Of a stretch of 64,000 nucleotides of DNA, positions 3,001 to 47,531 are shown one piece after another. Source of the stretch: a virus. Under the pieces are notes generated by a model. It saw only the letters and a program-made list of their open reading frames with translations, had not been told where the DNA came from and did not search any database. How positions within the stretch are numbered: the first letter of the stretch is position 1; each line of letters opens with the position of its first letter. The position numbers were made by a program, and so were the translations under genes. The stretch is from positions 23,129 to 87,128 of the IMG/VR virus record IMGVR_UViG_3300029825_000002; one strand, 5' to 3'.

Positions 3001-3624
3001 CTAAAAATACCTACTGGTTATGATGTTTTAGCTCCAGAAAATCTTAGAAGGGATGCAGGAAAGAGTAATATAATTCTGGTTAGAAAAGAGACTAAAGAAA
3101 TACAATTAATGTTGGGTAGTGGAGATAATTTAAATGGAATAATTACTTATGGAAATACACTAATAAATCAAAGTGTTACAAAACAGACAGGTAATATAAT
3201 ATATACACATCCATTTTTATATATAACTACTAGTGGTACAGGAACTTGCAAAGATAGCACTTTAAAATATAGGGATGTGTCTTGTAGATTACCTAAACCT
3301 AATAATTCTTATGCAGATTATCAATTATCCGAAGATATTATATCAGCAGAATGTGCAGAAAATTTGGCAGTAATATTAGCTACCTGTTCTTTAAAGAGTA
3401 ATTATAGAAATTTAAATAATATTATATCAAGTGATGGAGCAATTTTAGTTGCACCTGCTCTATCTAAGGTTATAAGTAAACTTGTATTAGGAGTAAGTTT
3501 AGTAGATGTAAATGGTCAACTATTCTTAAAAGTTAGATGTAAATTTGATACTAGCAATAATGTAGATAATAATGGGTCAGAAATAGCAGACTATTATTTA
3601 AATCATAAACCTTTAATAAAATAA
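1..3624 (+). CDS. Tail fibre / receptor-binding virion protein (5' end upstream of window)
   Basis: Frame is open from base 1, before the GTG at 136; long T/G/N/S-rich beta-type protein with a LamG-like segment; lies directly upstream of XkdX, holin and lysin. Confidence 0.65.
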   Translation, partial: GGDGQAIITPIIEDSRVGEETSRRIQLRWRIRVVDGVDFSQLPEGVGAVGSPALNELDIPFGLGGSNLSNSDIASNLDANYRYTHQFHKEIQSSWNVTDPLINDVGLYRAGYTKGYPIENTADGFSYAIPMFKVHRRNSGGYSTNNGNGSITYTKITFTRPTSIEAHGIGQYTVSVSDYTNISVNDIFMMNSIPQWKILSKNDNNTVTVLNLSNGIQGTGTISVVKYTRPDILLADIVDDRDILDLRHQVSLTGFNYQELLEENFDKLLRGELQTKERTKMLKTYHGIPKTPIDANTVFYASLDGTTTAEVGGNPTGGSCSFRTYPTGLGFKDNGSDLYYTLLNGMPSEFTIDYWGFSAICLTKGKCSISNNYDTGIILGSDMCLFKGVVYNTGLILSKNNMYLTHNRYTYKDGIFKAYINGQLRLNISIDLSSYLNTLDTLNLFQYSTKRGTEQRYSDLSVSNIDRGSTFATLPQDFIDGYARISPAFNSQRNVFSDALTTETKQELINVDGTKNKPYIHLGDATDWIKDDSTKWNAGDKVKLDTLTGEIITGVIDADTAIAKIVEVISSNNGDYRYKLNDVSKIVVNDKLTCIDGSYLIITAIDTTTNIITGESHNISEAIYAGLLNYAIGDLLYETTASSSSPLVKFNATGTLQSGGTNTITLPSTYNINDNFYNGFIISIDSGTGAGQVKTITDYVGSTKVATVDSNWTTQPDNTSVITIHNIDVGGTWSGLGTTEAIYTLPATLPSGLTNQSLALTYAMTEMSGQGGIPEVLTQTLAGEYKGDKLIPNPAHHILDDFQGKVAGSVIENPNIGRRTNGNGSQTSLLLPLSHNEAEMELGVNDSGITNIEKLDGSSIGTTTNITNAIPQHLFAFNLIEIVERKYGVIPGSTMADKVTWLKNNLASITCNWWGYGSCPSGNKAELKRFNFLSGTWSTVNISHTLNYSSLLTYSDLSYNLTTATLIDSNGFIYYLAYTDASDGTTPSTIYTDYINIEVTLKIPTGYDVLAPENLRRDAGKSNIILVRKETKEIQLMLGSGDNLNGIITYGNTLINQSVTKQTGNIIYTHPFLYITTSGTGTCKDSTLKYRDVSCRLPKPNNSYADYQLSEDIISAECAENLAVILATCSLKSNYRNLNNIISSDGAILVAPALSKVISKLVLGVSLVDVNGQLFLKVRCKFDTSNNVDNNGSEIADYYLNHKPLIK

Positions 3625-3631
3625 AACTAAC

Positions 3632-3660
3632 TTGATTGTTATTAATATTAGGAATATACT
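3632..3660 (+). promoter_or_regulatory. SigA-type promoter for the HNH gene
   Basis: TTGATT-17-TATACT. Confidence 0.55.
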
Positions 3661-3695
3661 TTATGTAGGTTACTAAAAGTTAGGAGGAATACACT

Positions 3696-4316
3696 TTGAG
3701 CAACAAAATATGCAAAGTTGAAGGGTGTCTACATAAAGTATTATCTAAAGGTTATTGTAGTCGACATTATGACCAAATAAGAAAATTGGGTAGAATAAAA
3801 AGAACTAAATGGGATGCCAATGAAATAATAGTACATTCTGATTATGCAGAAATGTTATTGTACAATGGACAAGGAATAGAAGTAGCAAGAACATTAATAG
3901 ACCTAATAGATATACCCTTATTGTCCAAATATAAATGGTATTTAAGAAAAGGTGACCATGGAAACAACTATGTTGTTAATGCCAGTACTAGAGAACCTAT
4001 TCATAGATTTTTATTAAATGTTACTAGTAAAAATAAGGAAGTAGACCATAGAGATAGAAATACCCTAAATAATAGACGTTATAATTTACGGGTAGTTACA
4101 GGATTACAAAATTCTCAAAATAGAAGTGTAAGAAAAGATAGTAGTTCTGGTATAAGAGGTGTACACTTAGAAAAACGAACAGGAAAATATATAGCTTATA
4201 TTACAGTAAATAAACAAAGAATGTTTTTAGGAAGGTATTCAGATATAACTATGGCTACACAAGTAAGAATTAATGCTGAAAAAGAATATTTTGGAGAATA
4301 TAGACCTATAAGTTAA
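3696..4316 (+). CDS. Free-standing HNH homing endonuclease with C-terminal AP2 domain
   Basis: IHRFLL..VDHRDRNTLNNRRYNLR HNH motif; SSSGIRGVH..GKYIAYI..FLGRY AP2 motif. Confidence 0.85.
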   Translation: MSNKICKVEGCLHKVLSKGYCSRHYDQIRKLGRIKRTKWDANEIIVHSDYAEMLLYNGQGIEVARTLIDLIDIPLLSKYKWYLRKGDHGNNYVVNASTREPIHRFLLNVTSKNKEVDHRDRNTLNNRRYNLRVVTGLQNSQNRSVRKDSSSGIRGVHLEKRTGKYIAYITVNKQRMFLGRYSDITMATQVRINAEKEYFGEYRPIS

Positions 4317-5919: not shown

Positions 5920-7053
5920 ATGACTAAGTTAGTATCAAGACAATGTGTTGACTTTGTAAAATCATTTGAAGGTTTTTCACCCACTGTCTATGATGATGGC
6001 ACAGGGGTTATGACATTAGGATATGGCATGACTGGTTCAGAGATAGAAGGAATAAGCAGTGTAACTGAAGAACAAGCCACAGAAATGCTAGAAGATTTAT
6101 TAGATAATAGATATGCTGCACCAATTAAAAATGATTTAGATAGTAGAGGTATAAAGCTTAACCAGAATCAGTTTGATGCTTTAGTAAGTATGGCTTACAA
6201 TATTGGAACTGGAGGGTTACTTGGTTCTACACTGTATAGACAGATATGTGAAGGTATAACAGACGAAGACATTCTTACAGCAGATTTCTGTATGTGGGAT
6301 AAAGCAGGAGGAAAAGTTTTACCTGGATTATTAAGAAGAAGAAAAGCAGAAGCAACCATGTTTTTTGGAAAATCTGGAACAGATACAAGTGTAGAAGAAA
6401 CTCCAGAGGAAAAAGGTAAAGAATTTATTGGCAGTAGATGTGCAGAACTTCAAACAAAGTTAAAAGAATTGGGATATGATGTTGGAGAAATAGATGGAAT
6501 TTTTGGAGATAAAACTTACAATGCTTTAACTAACTTTCAGAAATATAGCAAATTAACAGTAGATGGTTTGTGTGGAGAAAAAACCTGGGAAGAAATAGAG
6601 AAAGATTTAAAAGCTAAAGGCATAAAAGAAGATACTCAACCAATAACACCAACTAAAGATAATAGCATATCAAATTTACAAACTAACTTAAATGGACTTA
6701 TAAATGCAGGATTAACAGTAGATGGTATACAAGGTGAAAAAACAACAGAAGCTATTAAAAGTTTTCAAAAAATAATGGGATTAAATGAAGATGGAATTTT
6801 TGGAACTAAAACAAGTGAAGCTATTGCTGAAATACTTTCTTGTCCTTTAGACGGTGTTCCTTACCCTCATTATGAATATGCTACTAGATGGATTCAATGG
6901 AGAGTAGGAGCAGATATAGATGGAACTTTTGGTAATGGAACAGCACAAGCAGTAATGAATTTTCAGCAGGAGATAAGAACTAAGTATGAAGCTAATTTAT
7001 CAGTGGATGGAATAGTTGGGGGACAAACATGGCTCTGTATGTTCAAGTATTGA
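5920..7053 (+). CDS. Endolysin: GH24 lysozyme plus peptidoglycan-binding repeats
   Basis: FEG..YDD..TLGYG, NQFDALVSMAYNIG, GLLRRRKAEA; repeated DGIFGxKT / VDGIVG motifs. Confidence 0.92.
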   Translation: MTKLVSRQCVDFVKSFEGFSPTVYDDGTGVMTLGYGMTGSEIEGISSVTEEQATEMLEDLLDNRYAAPIKNDLDSRGIKLNQNQFDALVSMAYNIGTGGLLGSTLYRQICEGITDEDILTADFCMWDKAGGKVLPGLLRRRKAEATMFFGKSGTDTSVEETPEEKGKEFIGSRCAELQTKLKELGYDVGEIDGIFGDKTYNALTNFQKYSKLTVDGLCGEKTWEEIEKDLKAKGIKEDTQPITPTKDNSISNLQTNLNGLINAGLTVDGIQGEKTTEAIKSFQKIMGLNEDGIFGTKTSEAIAEILSCPLDGVPYPHYEYATRWIQWRVGADIDGTFGNGTAQAVMNFQQEIRTKYEANLSVDGIVGGQTWLCMFKY

Positions 7054-7159
7054 TTTTATAGGTTATAGTAAGTATAATTATATTAGGTAGTAAAAATAGG
7101 AGTAGATACTTTTAGTACCTGCTCTTTATTTAAATATAAAATTTAAGGAGGAAGTTAAT

Positions 7160-7711
7160 ATGATAAGTCCAGAATTAATATCAGTAGTATGTGGAATGGC
7201 AGGAGCAGCAGTTATGGGAGGATTTGCTTTAATACCTTATATTCAAAAGTATAATGGAAAGATAGATAAAGTATTGGAAGGGGCAAAAATAGTATTGGAT
7301 ACTTCAGATGCTATAGCAGACAAGTTAAAGCCAGTTGTTCCAATTAAGGACTACACTATAGCAAAAGCAATTATTAAAGCAACAGATATGGGAGTAAATA
7401 GAGCAGAACAATTATTGCATGAAGGTAACATAACACCAGAGGAAAGATATAAAAATTCATTAGACGCTGCACATTTATTTTTAAGTGTTGCTAAAATCAA
7501 TTTAGACGCTGATAGTGAGTTGTTATTAGAATATAGTATAAAGAGTGCCATTAATAAGTTAGGACACGCAAATGATACTCCTATAGTTGTTAAAAACGAG
7601 AATGTAAAAATGCCTTTAAGTGCAGACACAATTAATACTATAACAGAAAAAGTAGCAGCTAAATTAAGTGATGATGAAAAATCAGTAATACTGGAAGAAC
7701 CCATTAAATAA
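7160..7711 (+). CDS. Membrane-anchored hypothetical protein, possibly lysis accessory
   Basis: AAGGAGG SD; one N-terminal hydrophobic helix; follows endolysin. Confidence 0.5.
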   Translation: MISPELISVVCGMAGAAVMGGFALIPYIQKYNGKIDKVLEGAKIVLDTSDAIADKLKPVVPIKDYTIAKAIIKATDMGVNRAEQLLHEGNITPEERYKNSLDAAHLFLSVAKINLDADSELLLEYSIKSAINKLGHANDTPIVVKNENVKMPLSADTINTITEKVAAKLSDDEKSVILEEPIK

Positions 7712-39631: not shown

Positions 39632-39757
39632 ATGGAAAATAACTTATTATATAATGGAGGGGCAATAGTTAGTGTAACAAAGGTATTTAATGACATTTCA
39701 TGTTCTCATTTCTTAAAAGAGTATCAAGGTAAAGAAGGTGTTAAATTTGGGTACTAA
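39632..39757 (+). pseudogene. Orphan 5' fragment of queD (41 codons)
   Basis: GGAGGT SD; VTKVFNDISCSHFLKEYQGK parallels the QueD N-terminus. Confidence 0.7.
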
Positions 39758-41039
39758 AAGAGTTATAATATCCAAAGAACAGCTTCAAGAATGTCTTGAT
39801 TTAGGTTTAACAAGAATAAAGATGGCAGAAAGATTTAAATGTGGTGTAGTTACATTAGATAGAAATATGAAAGCTAATGGATTAGAATATCTTAAATCTA
39901 GTCATTTTAATAGTGGTGAAGGTAATCCTGCCAAAAGACCTTCAGTTAGAAGAAAGATAGCTAATACTGTTGCAACTTTATGGGAAGATGGTTTTTATGA
40001 CAATAGAATAGATGGTATGAGTTATAAAACAGGATTTGATGACCCTAATTATAAAGGTCATAAATGGGATTATAGAGATTATCTTGCTAAATATCAGGAT
40101 ATAAATGTATGTGCTGAATGTGGTAGAACAATAAAAGATAGTAAAATTGATGTTCACCATGTGGATGAAAACCATGAAAACTGGTTAATCACTAATTTAA
40201 AACCTTTATGTGTTAAATGTCATCAAACTAAACATTATAAATCTATGAAAACTCCTTATGTAACTATAGGTATTAAAAGCCATTTTGATTCTGCTCATAA
40301 TCTTTTAAACTATAAAGGTAAGTGTTCTCGAATCCATGGACACCGATATTTTTATGAAATTAAAATTAAGGATAGAATAAATAGAGAAACAGGAATGGTA
40401 ATGGATTTTAAGGTTCTGAAAAAACTTATAAAAGAAGGATTTGAAGAAGTAGTTGACCATGAATATTTAAATTATGTTTTACCTTTTAATACTACAGCAG
40501 AAAATATGGTAGTATGGATGTTTGAATTTTTAAGTAAAAGGCAATTAGTAAAAGGTATACAAGAAATTTCTTTATGGGAAACTCCTGAATGTATAACTAC
40601 ATTTACTTATAAAGATTTATTAAGAAGCTACATGGAAAACAAATTAGATTGTTTTACTACTAATTTTGAAGAAGATACAAAGAATTTTGACACCCAGTTA
40701 GTTGAAGATAATTTAGCAAAGAAAATGCAGGAGCAAGTATTTATTTATTGTGGTGAACGTCAACAATTGGGTAAAACTACTGGTTTAATTAATCAAGTAA
40801 GAAAAGATTCAGATGGAATACTAATTGTAGCTAATAGAGTAACTTCTAAACTGATTTATAGTAGATTTGGTATGAGAAGAAATAAAGTTTGGACATTAAA
40901 AGAATTAATGCAACATTCACCAGAGAGATTTAATTTGTATATAGACAATTTAACTCCAGAGCAAAGAGTAAATTTATTAAATTATGTTAATAGGAATAAA
41001 GGTTACTATATAATCAGAAATATGATTATAGAAGCATAA
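39738..41039 (+). CDS. queD: HNH endonuclease - QueD - P-loop-like fusion
   Basis: CAECG..VHHVDENHEN..LCVKCH; FDSAH..KCSRIHGH..GMVMDF..DHEYLN..TTAEN..LWET; C-terminal GERQQLGKTT. Confidence 0.88.
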   Translation: MLNLGTKRVIISKEQLQECLDLGLTRIKMAERFKCGVVTLDRNMKANGLEYLKSSHFNSGEGNPAKRPSVRRKIANTVATLWEDGFYDNRIDGMSYKTGFDDPNYKGHKWDYRDYLAKYQDINVCAECGRTIKDSKIDVHHVDENHENWLITNLKPLCVKCHQTKHYKSMKTPYVTIGIKSHFDSAHNLLNYKGKCSRIHGHRYFYEIKIKDRINRETGMVMDFKVLKKLIKEGFEEVVDHEYLNYVLPFNTTAENMVVWMFEFLSKRQLVKGIQEISLWETPECITTFTYKDLLRSYMENKLDCFTTNFEEDTKNFDTQLVEDNLAKKMQEQVFIYCGERQQLGKTTGLINQVRKDSDGILIVANRVTSKLIYSRFGMRRNKVWTLKELMQHSPERFNLYIDNLTPEQRVNLLNYVNRNKGYYIIRNMIIEA

Positions 41040-42460: not shown

Positions 42461-43195
42461 ATGCTAAACAAATATAATTGGTACAATAAAATTAAGGATA
42501 AAAGAATAGTATTACTTCAAAGTGGGGGATTAGACAGCAATATTGTAGCAGCTTTACTATCTTATTATCATTTTTCTATACAGCATCTATTTATAGATTA
42601 TGGTCAGAATATGCTAGAGCAAGAAAGGAAAAATGCTAGACTAATAGTAAAACATTATGGTGGGAAACTAACAGAAACTAAAATAGATTTACCCTGGTTA
42701 AAAGAAGCCACGAATTTAGTAGATAATGTTGTTAATGATGAAGGAGCAATAGGAAAGTTTAATACCTATGATGTGGGAACTTATGTACCTTTAAGAAATC
42801 ATGTACTATTAAGTATAGCAGGTTCTTTAGCTGAAGCCTATAAAATACCTAATATAGCTTGTGCTTTTGATGGTTGTCAAAATATTCTAGGAAAACCTAC
42901 AGGTGGAACAACAGATAAACACCCTAAATTTATACACAGGATTGAACAATCTATTAATGAAGGTTCAGCTATGTATCATATTGAACATAAACCTATCCAG
43001 ATACTAACACCTATTATGAATTTTTATAAAACAGATACGATTCAGTTAGGTTTAGAGTTAAATGCAGATATGTCTATTAGTTGGAGTTGTTATAATAAGG
43101 GAGATAAACCTTGTGGTCATTGTAGTGCTTGTGAAGATAGAGAAGAAGCCTTTAGAGTATTAGGAATAGACGACCCCGCTTTATCTGAAAAATAA
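42461..43195 (+). CDS. queC: 7-cyano-7-deazaguanine synthase
   Basis: SGGLDS; YVPLRN; SWSCY..PCGHCSACEDR. Confidence 0.95.
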   Translation: MLNKYNWYNKIKDKRIVLLQSGGLDSNIVAALLSYYHFSIQHLFIDYGQNMLEQERKNARLIVKHYGGKLTETKIDLPWLKEATNLVDNVVNDEGAIGKFNTYDVGTYVPLRNHVLLSIAGSLAEAYKIPNIACAFDGCQNILGKPTGGTTDKHPKFIHRIEQSINEGSAMYHIEHKPIQILTPIMNFYKTDTIQLGLELNADMSISWSCYNKGDKPCGHCSACEDREEAFRVLGIDDPALSEK

Positions 43196-43485: not shown

Positions 43486-44094
43486 ATGAATTTAAACGAA
43501 GAATTAAATGAAGGTAAAAAGCAGTTAATAGAAGATAAAGTTGGGGAAATAATGAATATTTTAGATTTATCTCTTACAGATGATAATAGAGAAACACCTA
43601 GAAGAATAGCTAAAATGTTAGTAGATGAATTATTTAAAAATAGAAATGGTAATAATATAGAAGAATTAAATAATCAGATGAAGCTATTTAATTCACCAGA
43701 ATATCCTGACCTTGTAGTAGTTAAAGATATTCCTTTTCATTCTGTTTGTAGTCATCATTGGTTGCCCTTCTTTGGGAAAGTTGCAGTAGGATATATACCT
43801 AATAAGAAAATAATTGGATTAAGTAAAATACCTAGAGTAATAAAATATTTTAGTCAAAAACCACAAGTACAAGAAAGATTAACAAATGAAATAATGGAGT
43901 ATTTATGTAAAGTAATTCAGCCACTATATATAATTGTGTATATGTATGATGTTAGGCACACTTGTATGACAGTTAGAGGTATAGAAAGTGAAGGAGTAAC
44001 AAATACTTATGTAGATACCTATGACGAAGATAAAGTTAATTTAACTAGCATGATTAGATACAAAGAAAGATTTTTAGGAATGGTGGGGAAATAA
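43486..44094 (+). CDS. folE: GTP cyclohydrolase I
   Basis: ETPRRIAKM; SVCSHHWLPFFG; GLSKIPR; QVQERLT; HTCMTVRG. Confidence 0.95.
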   Translation: MNLNEELNEGKKQLIEDKVGEIMNILDLSLTDDNRETPRRIAKMLVDELFKNRNGNNIEELNNQMKLFNSPEYPDLVVVKDIPFHSVCSHHWLPFFGKVAVGYIPNKKIIGLSKIPRVIKYFSQKPQVQERLTNEIMEYLCKVIQPLYIIVYMYDVRHTCMTVRGIESEGVTNTYVDTYDEDKVNLTSMIRYKERFLGMVGK

Positions 44095-46143
44095 ATGAAA
44101 CTAAAGAAAGTGGGGAAAAAGCATCTAAAGAAACTTAAAAAGATTAAACCAAAAGAAAATAAATATGATAACATAAAAGATATTGTGGACAGAAAACAAC
44201 CTTTTAGATTGATTTATTCGGGAGTAGAAGGAAAGAAGTATTTCACTATTCTATATAACATGGGAATAAAGAACTATTTAATGTCCTATCATTATATTAG
44301 AGAGAAACATATTAAAATGTCTAAATATATTGATATGGGATTAAAATTTTTCATTGATTCTGGAGCATATACTTACCAAAATGATGAAAAGTATCAGGAT
44401 TATACTGAAGAACAGTGGGAACAGCAAATAAAAGAATATTTAGATTGGGCGAGAGATAATAAAGAGACTATATTTGCAATAGCTAATTTAGACTTAGAGT
44501 ATCTAGTAGGACAAGAAACAGTATGTAAATGGAATGAAGAATACTTTGAACCATTTATGCTTGAAACTGGTATACCTGTATGTTTTATATGGCATGATGT
44601 TACTGGTATAGAAGAATGGGAAAGATATTGTGAAAGATATTCCTATGTTGGTTTTCCTTGGTTACTAAATGAAGGTTTATATGGTGGTGGTTATAATAGA
44701 TGCAGTAAGTTATTAAAGATTGCAGAAAAGCATAATACATTAGTTCATGGTATGGGTATGACTAGAGCATCTATGTTAACTAAACTTCCTTTTTACTCTT
44801 CTGATTCTACTACATGGAAAATGGGACTAGAATATGGGAACTTTCTTGTGTTTACTGGTAAGAATATACGGCAGATAAAGAAAGACCAATATGATACAGC
44901 AGTTAGATACATGAAGAATTATAAACCATCCCTAAAAATAGATTATAAGAAGCTGTATGACTATGATGTGGAACAGGTGGTACAAACTTGTGCTTATGCT
45001 TTTATTTTAGCAGAAAAGTATATACAAACAAGATTAAGAGCTAGAATGTATTGGTTAAAACCAGAACAAATTGAGCAATCAGTAAATGATATTGAATTTC
45101 CTTCCCCTGATTATTTACTTAATGAACTATCTGAAGATGAAACAGAGTATAAAGAATGGGCGAAGAAGTTTAATATTAATCCAGATAATGAGGATGTAAA
45201 CTATGTTAAGAATAGTATTATAGATATTACTTGCTTGTTAAATTGGGATGATGAAGAATATGAAGAAGCTATTCAACATTTTTATCCTAGTGATGATACC
45301 CTTAAAGAAGTTTATGACCTCTACATTAATAAACCTTGTGATTCCAAAGAAGAAATGCTTTCAGACCTCATTGGTTTTTGTACAGATGTAATAGAAGGGA
45401 GAAATGATAAACTTCTAGTGGCAGGTACTAACTTTGATAGAATGGCTAAAGAAAGAGATAACTATATAACAGATGAAGAATATGAATATGTAGATGTTCC
45501 AAAAGAAGAAGTTCAGCAGGAATTACACAAGCTTTTACCTTCCCCAGATGATACTAAAAGCATAGCACCAGAAATAGATAATATGGATGATGAAATCTTT
45601 AGTAACTTAGAAATAGTTCCTGTAAGAGATAAAAAAGGTAGATTCTTAAAAGGGCAAAAGAAAGTAAGAAAGAGAAAGAACATTTATTCAGAGAAATATC
45701 CTAAGTTAATTTGTAGTACCTGTTATGCTGCACAAACTTGTCCAGAGTACAAAGATGGCTATGTATGTGCTTATAATAGAATGTTTAAGCGTTTTGACTG
45801 CCGTAACCCTAATGACATAATAGAAGCCATACAGGGTATGATTAATCTTAATATGGAACGTATGCAGAGAACAGCTATATTTGAAATGCTAGATGGTGGT
45901 ATGCCTGATGGGAATGTAACGAATTTTATAGACCAGAATGTAAAGTTACTTACTACTTTAAAGACTATGTATAAAAATGATAGTGAGTTAATGAAACATA
46001 CCAGAACTATTAATGCAGATGGAAGTATGCAAGAAACCACTAGTATCAAACAAGGTGGTGGGGGAATAATAGAACAGATGCTAAAAAGTATGACTATGCA
46101 ACAAAATACTAATAATGAGGATGAAAATGATAAAGAAGTTTAA
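44095..46143 (+). CDS. dpdA: DpdA/TGT-like guanine transglycosylase fused to a Cys-containing C-terminal domain
   Basis: LMSYHY, FIDSGAY, NLDL, VHGMG, SSDSTTW motifs; directly after folE; C-terminal CSTC..CP..CAY. Confidence 0.65.
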   Translation: MKLKKVGKKHLKKLKKIKPKENKYDNIKDIVDRKQPFRLIYSGVEGKKYFTILYNMGIKNYLMSYHYIREKHIKMSKYIDMGLKFFIDSGAYTYQNDEKYQDYTEEQWEQQIKEYLDWARDNKETIFAIANLDLEYLVGQETVCKWNEEYFEPFMLETGIPVCFIWHDVTGIEEWERYCERYSYVGFPWLLNEGLYGGGYNRCSKLLKIAEKHNTLVHGMGMTRASMLTKLPFYSSDSTTWKMGLEYGNFLVFTGKNIRQIKKDQYDTAVRYMKNYKPSLKIDYKKLYDYDVEQVVQTCAYAFILAEKYIQTRLRARMYWLKPEQIEQSVNDIEFPSPDYLLNELSEDETEYKEWAKKFNINPDNEDVNYVKNSIIDITCLLNWDDEEYEEAIQHFYPSDDTLKEVYDLYINKPCDSKEEMLSDLIGFCTDVIEGRNDKLLVAGTNFDRMAKERDNYITDEEYEYVDVPKEEVQQELHKLLPSPDDTKSIAPEIDNMDDEIFSNLEIVPVRDKKGRFLKGQKKVRKRKNIYSEKYPKLICSTCYAAQTCPEYKDGYVCAYNRMFKRFDCRNPNDIIEAIQGMINLNMERMQRTAIFEMLDGGMPDGNVTNFIDQNVKLLTTLKTMYKNDSELMKHTRTINADGSMQETTSIKQGGGGIIEQMLKSMTMQQNTNNEDENDKEV

Positions 46144-46833: not shown

Positions 46834-47118
46834 ATGAGTAGAAATGTAGAATTAGAAGAACAAGAATTGCAAAAGGAATATGATGTGAAAGAACAAGAGT
46901 ATGTAGAAATTTCGGGAAGAAAAGCACCTTTACCTAATTTACTCAATATGCTAAAGAAGGGAGAATACAACCTTAGACAAACATGGGATAAACAACAAAA
47001 GTTAAAAGAATATCAGAGAGAACAACTACATAAAAGTCAGACAAATGTTTTATTAAATAAAAATAAAAGAAAGACGTTTAAGAAACTGTCTTGTCATATA
47101 GAAGAAGGGGATGAATAA
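46834..47118 (+). CDS. Hypothetical protein upstream of mazF (candidate antitoxin)
   Basis: AAGGAGG SD; stop 2 nt before the mazF start; no MazE motif recognised. Confidence 0.5.
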   Translation: MSRNVELEEQELQKEYDVKEQEYVEISGRKAPLPNLLNMLKKGEYNLRQTWDKQQKLKEYQREQLHKSQTNVLLNKNKRKTFKKLSCHIEEGDE

Positions 47119-47120
47119 AA

Positions 47121-47531
47121 ATGAAGTTAGCAGAAGCAGCTACAATTAATAACATTAATCAAGAAGGAATATTTCGGGGTCAGATTTATATTGCTAACCT
47201 TGGAGAAACTATAGGATGTGAACAAAGTGGAGAAAGACCGGTTTTAGTTGTACAGAATAACAAAGGATATAAAAGTCCTACTATAACTGTAACAAGCATT
47301 ACATCTAGCACAAAGAAGTTACAGAAGTATTGTCCTTATCATACCAATATCATAGTAACAGATGATAGAGCAAAATTTTCGGGATTATATAAAAAAGATT
47401 CAGTAGTGTTATGTGAACAAATAAGAACCATATCACGAAAGAGGTTTAAAAAATTTGTGGGAGAATTACCAGATAGTGATATGAAAAGAATAGATAAGGC
47501 TTTAATAGTAGCTTTAGGTTTATACAAATAA
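47121..47531 (+). CDS. mazF: MazF/PemK-family endoribonuclease
   Basis: RGQIYIANL..GCEQSGERPVLVVQN; ITS; DSVVLCEQIRTISRKRF. Confidence 0.9.
   Translation: MKLAEAATINNINQEGIFRGQIYIANLGETIGCEQSGERPVLVVQNNKGYKSPTITVTSITSSTKKLQKYCPYHTNIIVTDDRAKFSGLYKKDSVVLCEQIRTISRKRFKKFVGELPDSDMKRIDKALIVALGLYK

Follow-up and report, generated by a model that had tools for sequence, protein, structure and literature searches.

A Cys4-knuckle and helical-hairpin module fused to a phage DpdA-type transglycosylase is a candidate small terminase subunit

The window analyzed here is a 64,000-nucleotide stretch of DNA that covers positions 23129-87128 of one 91,836-bp phage contig (IMG/VR record IMGVR_UViG_3300029825_000002), a genome that CheckV scores as 100% complete. 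The guanine-cytosine (GC) content is ∼29%, nearly all genes lie on the + strand, and a tail sheath, a phrog_64 portal, and a major head protein mark the phage as a myovirus-type relative of Bacillus phage BCD7. Our subject is a 682-residue open reading frame (ORF) in the preQ0 gene block of this genome, in which a barrel of the tRNA-guanine transglycosylase (TGT)/DpdA type is followed by a C-terminal module with a four-Cys cluster and a long helical hairpin. Gene contexts in related phages, the presence of a single copy, and a search that found no other small terminase subunit (TerS) in the genome suggest to us, with about even confidence, that the module is a small-terminase-type subunit. The features of the fusion, followed by those of its neighbors in the preQ0 block, are as follows (window coordinates; aa, amino acid residues; model confidence as the predicted local distance difference test, pLDDT).

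44095..46143 (genome 67223-69271), + strand: DpdA-module fusion ORF, 682 aa, from the ORF list
44179..45054, + strand: TGT/DpdA-type (beta/alpha)8 barrel, aa ∼29-320 (AlphaFold2 pLDDT >90, Foldseek, VIA-align)
45106..45429, + strand: subfamily-specific helical domain (the "M" region), aa 338-445 (helices 338-433, pLDDT 92-98)
45430..45609, + strand: acidic low-confidence linker, aa ∼446-505, with a conserved APEIDxLDDEIF (pLDDT 51-74; alignment A1)
45610..45699, + strand: basic arm, aa 506-535, holding RDKKGRFLKGQKKVRKRK and modeled as a beta-hairpin (AlphaFold2 strands 507-511 and 517-525)
45700..45774, + strand: Cys4 knuckle, aa 536-560 (P536, C540, C543, C549-P550, C558; fragment model pLDDT 97)
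45808..45981, + strand: long antiparallel helical hairpin, aa 572-629 (helices 572-599 and 606-629, pLDDT 92-98)
45994..46044, + strand: beta-hairpin, aa 634-650, with a conserved DG..E.TT (AlphaFold2 strands; G643 invariant in 15 relatives)
46048..46107, + strand: C-terminal helix, aa 652-671, with the tail GGGGIIEQML at aa 653-662 (AlphaFold2 helix 658-671)
42461..43195, + strand: QueC (preQ0 synthase), an upstream pathway gene (Pfam PF06508, E 4e-38)
43486..44094, + strand: FolE (GTP cyclohydrolase I; Pfam PF01227, E 6e-47)
39738..41039, + strand: HNH endonuclease-QueD fusion ORF of the preQ0 block (phrog_2389, QueD-like, E 5e-21, plus HNH families)

By ORF coordinates, the FolE stop codon abuts the start codon of the fusion gene. 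The association with preQ0 genes that belongs to the DpdA/TGT superfamily is thus present, with QueC and FolE directly upstream and a QueD-like gene in the block. Among family searches by sequence, PHROGs alone recognizes the fusion protein: phrog_887, "queuine tRNA-ribosyltransferase", matches aa 32-681 at E 2e-63, and the phrog_887 profile itself already takes in the C-terminal module. Pfam and NCBIfam give no match for the whole protein or for its C-terminal part, and phmmer and profile searches of the PDB sequences return no TGT, DpdA, or TerS. Full-length homologues of 650-700 aa number more than 250. The full-length AlphaFold2 model was built from 62 homologues (mean pLDDT 83, predicted template modeling score 0.70) and a separate model of aa 500-682 from 131 homologues (pLDDT 86.5). 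Residue conservation was scored in 15 close relatives (alignment A1), in 62 sequences for the barrel, and in 131 diverse homologues for the module.

The N-terminal half is recognizable by fold. The barrel matches the Zymomonas mobilis TGT in Foldseek (E 1.5e-5, probability 1.00), and VIA-align superposes it on a bacterial TGT with a Z score of 19.6 and a root-mean-square deviation (rmsd) of 3.3 Å over 278 aligned residues. Among the 62 sequences, D237 (in DSTTW) is invariant, D88 (in FIDSGA), D133, and H167 are nearly so, and G219 is also conserved. The active site of Salmonella Montevideo DpdA consists of Asp95, Asp130, His181, and Asp256 (PDB 7UI4; PMC10164549), an order that D88, D133, H167, and D237 follow; the one-to-one mapping is deduced from that order. 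Because the conserved Asp/Asp/His/Asp order matches the Salmonella site, the DpdA-type transglycosylase half is apparently active. The DpdA family also conserves a structural zinc site, CXCX2CX22H, which pins Ins8 to helix alpha8 in DpdA/TGT (PMC10164549). Neither this site nor any other conserved Cys/His cluster was found in aa 1-505 in the alignments, and the sole conserved Cys cluster of the protein is a CX2CX5CX8C at aa 540-558, within the added module. A preliminary description of this DNA had the TGT-like part end near residue 300, with a linker as the first element of the remainder. The barrel assignment stands, although aa 338-445 are a folded helical domain and not a linker; a profile of this domain matches only the closer fusions.

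The same description had listed, in a region that corresponds to aa 436-682 (45400-46143), an acidic linker, an RDKKGRFLKG motif, four Cys, a helical segment, and a GGGGII..ML tail. All of these are present and conserved, as assessed in the 15 and the 131 homologues. RDKKGRFLKG occupies aa 511-520 in the basic arm, of which D512, G515, F517, K519, G520, and Q521 are invariant in the 15 close relatives, as are R589, E597, and G601 farther on in the module. The arm is probably a DNA-contacting element. The four Cys of the knuckle are the only invariant columns across the 131 diverse homologues, and the pattern CxxCx5CPx6-9C is found in 121/149 representatives; we presume that the knuckle is a zinc site. 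The helical hairpin is a candidate oligomerization core. In the family the tail has the consensus GGILxxLFG, with G[ILVM][ILVM]xx[ILMF][FLM] present in 76/121 homologues, stand-alone forms among them, and we consider it a candidate partner-binding peptide, perhaps for the large terminase subunit (TerL). An internal start at M497 that would express the module separately was considered and set aside: no Shine-Dalgarno sequence precedes it, and the family has Leu at that residue.

The distribution of the module was followed with a phmmer query of aa 430-682 against 1.84e9 cluster representatives, which gave 477 matches at E ≤ 1e-3. The best 149 of these 477 were classified with barrel, middle-domain, and module profiles. 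They comprise 46 fusions to a DpdA barrel (480-1150 aa, with inteins in some), 63 short stand-alone proteins of up to 340 aa, 16 proteins with a different N-terminal part (360-620 aa), and 24 fragments. In the stand-alone proteins, 215-330 aa long, the knuckle, the hairpin, and a GGILxxLFG tail come after a basic N-terminus of low complexity. Judged by these sequences, the module is an independent, separable, and widespread unit. The fusion appears in several lengths, among them a compact 479-aa form (locus L023) and, in the Streptomyces phages GiJojo, LuckySocke, and Alone3, where the module is also joined to DpdA, a GiJojo type of ∼500 aa. DpdA and module also exist as nearby separate genes: in L014, a 61.7-kb fragment of high GC, a 336-aa DpdA is encoded downstream of a ligase and a separate 326-aa module protein 2.5 kb farther on. 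As a side observation, several fusions (P0006, P0057, P0068, P0128, P0146) reach 1119-1152 aa, with the barrel split by intein and LAGLIDADG insertions (PF14890, PF14528).

Stand-alone genes lead to the packaging genes in three groups of uncultured IMG/VR records, L010 (with L009), L011, and L012 (with L013), where the module gene encodes 285, at least 195, and 303 aa, respectively. It ends 0.6-0.9 kb upstream of TerL in L010, L011, and L012, and a phrog_64 portal gene follows. We regard this as the same packaging module as in the studied phage because the TerL proteins are 33-38% identical to that of the studied phage or of BCD7. The L010-L012 records, which are fragments, show no detectable DpdA barrel in the 12.7-46.7 kb that they cover. 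Upstream of the packaging block, L010 (3490-6341) and L012 (2371-5301) encode a MoxR-type AAA ATPase (PF20030, E 3e-30) and a protein of ∼530-550 aa without a family match. Among cultured phages, a tblastn search with the stand-alone forms returned BCD7 only.

A further form of the module stands next to TerL in Gordonia phage Woes. Woes gp6 (YP_009273397.1, 465 aa) aligns to the module at its aa 294-440 (pairwise E 1e-10), and hhalign compares Woes-like proteins with the fusion family at 99.7% probability (E 3e-25). Like the fusion, gp6 has a Cys4 knuckle, a helical hairpin, and the tail; unlike the fusion, its N-terminal 290 residues have no hhalign match to the DpdA barrel, and its gene directly precedes TerL and portal, overlapping the start of TerL gp7 with portal gp8 next. 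A DpdA-like barrel in gp6 was considered and found no confirmation, since hhalign with the fusion family matched the module only; an ESM Atlas search with the Woes-like N-terminus gave no usable match. The complete Woes genome contains no QueC and no phrog_887 match besides gp6, and therefore the module exists without 7-deazaguanine genes. In PHROGs, phrog_6902 is defined by gp6, which matches phrog_16015 as well; the two families are labeled "terminase small subunit".

The region ahead of TerL in the studied clade offers no conserved TerS. TerL lies at the contig ends (genome 88631-88798 and 89945-91252, with the last residues at 432-578), and we compared 44 IMG/VR loci with TerL 32-69% identical. 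No module or DpdA barrel occurs within 6 kb of TerL in these loci, in which positive controls scored. DNA ligase is the upstream neighbor in 37/44 loci. The interval that separates ligase from TerL measures 73-2914 bp; it is empty in three lineages (73-105 bp), and elsewhere it carries ORFs of at least five families unrelated to one another. In the studied genome this hypervariable slot is the following feature.

Genome 87523-88630 (L003:3524-4550): hypervariable slot between DNA ligase and TerL

Because the slot is hypervariable and sometimes empty, we conclude that no conserved TerS precedes TerL in the clade. Two sets of candidates in the slot were rejected: the phage's own 191-aa zinc-ribbon ORF upstream of TerL has no homologue in the 44 relatives and no PHROG match, and BCD7 gp105-108 match no TerS family and are mutually unrelated. 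The TerL gene itself is interrupted twice (L003:4551-7837 and L002:1-581). An intron-like insert after residue ∼57 carries a 294-aa endonuclease ORF (phrog_4645); it is also found in L032 and L033, and the 5' part of TerL is uninterrupted in ∼35 other relatives. An intein-like insert near residue ∼490, with a HINT-type start and a LAGLIDADG Pfam match, spans the contig ends.

Elsewhere in the genome the result is the same. Five Pfam TerS families (PF03592, PF05119, PF11053, PF16677, PF10668) have no credible match, and the only TerS-labeled PHROG match is the module itself (phrog_6902, E 6e-5 to 1e-7). On the question posed by the preliminary description, whether the full genome has another terS, the result leans toward its proposal: across the 100% complete genome, none was found with these Pfam families or PHROGs. 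Six-frame profile searches of the complete genome give exactly one copy of the module, and all of the complete relatives that were examined (5/5, 84-92 kb) have a single module, in each case as part of a 691-733-aa ORF.

A typical TerS has an N-terminal helix-turn-helix (HTH), forms a ring of 8-12 subunits, binds DNA at pac or cos, and binds and regulates TerL. Its core consists of central helices for oligomerization, and in many cases the strands that come next build a barrel within the ring. In the model of our module, the succession of helical hairpin, beta-hairpin, and C-terminal helix would fit such a layout. We give about even weight to the reading, drawn from comparative sequence analysis, in which the module is a small-terminase-type subunit of an undescribed TerS family that was fused to DpdA in the BCD7-like clade. 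In this respect the proposal of the preliminary description that the module is a small terminase gains partial support, which comes from comparative genomics rather than from the fold. It is favored by the gene contexts, by the single copy, and by the absence of another detected TerS; the fold, the missing HTH, and the 19 kb that separate the gene from TerL do not favor it.

Several observations weigh against a terminase function. The module has no HTH; AlphaFold2 places a basic beta-hairpin arm and a Cys4 knuckle before the hairpin instead. Foldseek of the module model against the PDB returns nothing at E ≤ 0.001, and VIA-align returns ∼50 tied generic helical hairpins with Z scores of 8-9. 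The TerS of the T4 family (3txs, 9oox) score 8.0-8.1, tied with unrelated chains. A BFVD search gives uncharacterized homologues and two weak "TerS" matches (E 0.04-0.05), and no profile link to solved TerS structures or to Pfam TerS families was found. The fold check that the preliminary description had proposed thus yields generic helical hairpins, with 3txs and 9oox level with ∼50 unrelated chains. The genomic evidence has counterparts of its own. The fusion gene belongs to the que cluster and is not adjacent to TerL, from which 19 kb separate it. In the high-GC loci L019/L020, L021/L022, L026, and L027, no TerL is found within 2.7-3.4 kb downstream of the stand-alone gene. One or two small unannotated ORFs stand between the module gene and TerL in L010 and L012, and these could be the true TerS instead; they match no TerS family and are mutually unrelated, and we did not retain them as candidates. 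Most GenBank records call Woes-like gp6 "hypothetical"; for that reason we take the "terminase small subunit" designation of phrog_6902 as probably derived from position and not from experiment. TerS proteins are also very diverse, so that not finding another one is weak evidence.

These points allow for an accessory role in which the module is a DNA-binding or oligomerization part of the DpdA clade, maybe TerS-derived and without a role in packaging, that would tether or multimerize the barrel on DNA much as DpdB acts with bacterial DpdA, the real TerS being an unrecognized small protein elsewhere. Such a role would account for the attachment of the module to DpdA in every cultured phage with the que pathway (BCD7, GiJojo, LuckySocke, Alone3), for the separate DpdA and module genes of L014 that lie 2.5 kb apart in one block, for the short 479-aa fusion of L023, for the location of the fusion gene, which is part of the que operon and is not near TerL, and for the high-GC stand-alone genes that do not adjoin TerL. 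It fits poorly with Woes, where the module occupies the TerS slot in a phage with neither QueC nor a detectable DpdA barrel, with L010-L012, where no DpdA is found in 12.7-46.7 kb and the module gene sits in the TerL-portal block, and with the 37 relatives that have no conserved alternative TerS upstream of TerL. On this balance we judge the accessory role rather unlikely. The missing zinc site of the barrel suggests another origin for the knuckle: it could be the displaced structural zinc site of TGT/DpdA, docking on the barrel, with the hairpin a clade-specific extension and the stand-alone forms fission products that act in trans. The canonical CXCX2CX22H is indeed absent from aa 1-505 while the only conserved Cys cluster lies at 540-558, and VIA alignments of bacterial TGT reach model residues 542-550, so that the knuckle might dock at the position of the TGT/DpdA zinc site. 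Yet the CX2CX5CX8C spacing differs from CXCX2C...H, ∼220 residues including the low-confidence linker separate barrel from knuckle, hhalign of the Woes-like proteins matches the module and not the barrel, 63/149 representatives are short proteins without a barrel, and no barrel gene is near in L010 and L012. We find this origin improbable.

The generic nature of the helical hairpin also fits a zinc-knuckle coiled-coil adaptor that would attach, for example, to a replication or late-transcription factor through GGILxxLF and stand near TerL by coincidence. The gene contexts differ between lineages, as such an adaptor would allow, and the separate DpdA of L014 ends with a similar peptide, QGVVSQLFA (gene at 3061-4071), which resembles the module tail motif GGILSRLFG (separate module gene at 6638-7618). 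The resemblance hints that the two L014 proteins may bind one shared partner via a tail peptide. Against coincidence stand four independent lineages, of one TerL/portal type or actinophages, in which the module lies upstream of TerL, and its strictly single-copy conservation across the whole clade; we hold the adaptor to be highly improbable.

If the small-terminase reading is correct, the two halves of the protein would cooperate as follows. The N-terminal half would be a DpdA-type DNA guanine transglycosylase; the neighboring FolE, QueD, QueE, and QueC would supply preQ0, which the enzyme would insert into the DNA of the phage. The C-terminal module (aa ∼506-671) would be a packaging-initiation subunit in which the basic arm and the Cys4 zinc knuckle contact DNA in place of an HTH, the helical hairpin and beta-hairpin assemble a ring, and the C-terminal GGILxxLF helix engages TerL. 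In sister lineages the module is a separate gene before TerL, and in the BCD7-like clade it would have been fused to DpdA, away from the TerL-proximal slot; each TerS ring would then bring several transglycosylase barrels onto the concatemer. Domain architecture, homology, and gene contexts are observed directly, as are the single copy and the absence of a detectable alternative TerS; oligomerization, DNA binding, TerL binding, and the coupling of modification to packaging we infer. The full proposal, in which a single protein serves the whole ∼85-92-kb myophage clade as 7-deazaguanine DNA transglycosylase and as small terminase, modification is coupled physically and temporally to genome recognition and packaging, and the module founds a new widespread zinc-knuckle TerS family, is tentative, and we place it slightly on the doubtful side of even.

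Phage DpdA is thought to act after replication, and guanine modification levels span <1% to 100%. Fusion of DpdA to a genome-recognizing packaging subunit would, if true, be a direct targeting mechanism, and it would predict a gradient of modification from the pac site. Members of the module family, which would be an unrecognized family of small terminases or packaging-associated DNA-binding proteins with hundreds of members, are now annotated as hypothetical or hidden in "queuine tRNA-ribosyltransferase", and their recognition would improve phage annotation.

Two further features of the neighborhood are recorded here. In the ORF at 39738-41039, the HNH part is N-terminal and the QueD-like part is C-terminal. 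A MazF/PemK-family toxin gene (window 47121-47531, Pfam E 4e-27) follows the DpdA fusion at a distance of about 1 kb; the 94-aa ORF before it, at 46834-47118, could be its antitoxin.

Among known systems, DpdA1-4 have been described previously (PMC6884629, Hutinet 2019; PMC10516641, Cui/Hutinet 2023). The studied protein resembles them in its TGT-type barrel, its Asp/Asp/His/Asp set, the position of its gene after FolE and QueC in a preQ0 block, and a predicted role in post-replicative guanine exchange in phage DNA. It differs in that it has no Pfam TGT match, no sequence-level match to 7UI4, and no CXCX2CX22H zinc site, and in the addition of ∼360 residues (helical domain, linker, and Cys4-hairpin module). 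The DpdA papers PMC6884629, PMC10516641, and PMC10164549 make no mention of terminase, packaging, or a fusion at the C-terminus, and the full-text literature on DpdA and terminase gave genome descriptions only, with no paper found that describes the fusion. On the terminase side, the closest solved structures are those of T4-family gp16 (phage 44RR, 3TXS; T6, 9OOX), with which the module shares an antiparallel hairpin of ∼64 residues (Z 8.0-8.1, rmsd 2.4-2.5 Å), a likeness tied with dozens of unrelated hairpins. Unlike the module, gp16 has neither a Cys4 knuckle nor a beta-hairpin; the two show no similarity in sequence, and PF11053 has no match in the genome. The nearest counterpart is BCD7 gp021 (YP_007005872.1), which has the full architecture and is 35% identical to the studied protein over aa 36-677 (45% in the module). 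It is longer than the studied protein (757 aa) and is annotated as a queuine tRNA-ribosyltransferase with the module unannotated, and in BCD7, unlike in the studied phage, the interval between ligase and TerL holds four small unrelated ORFs (gp105-108). The two phages agree in the gene order QueD-QueE-QueC-FolE-DpdA, in TerL (50% identical), in a related portal, and in having no annotated TerS, and BCD7 is a cultured relative that carries the same fusion.

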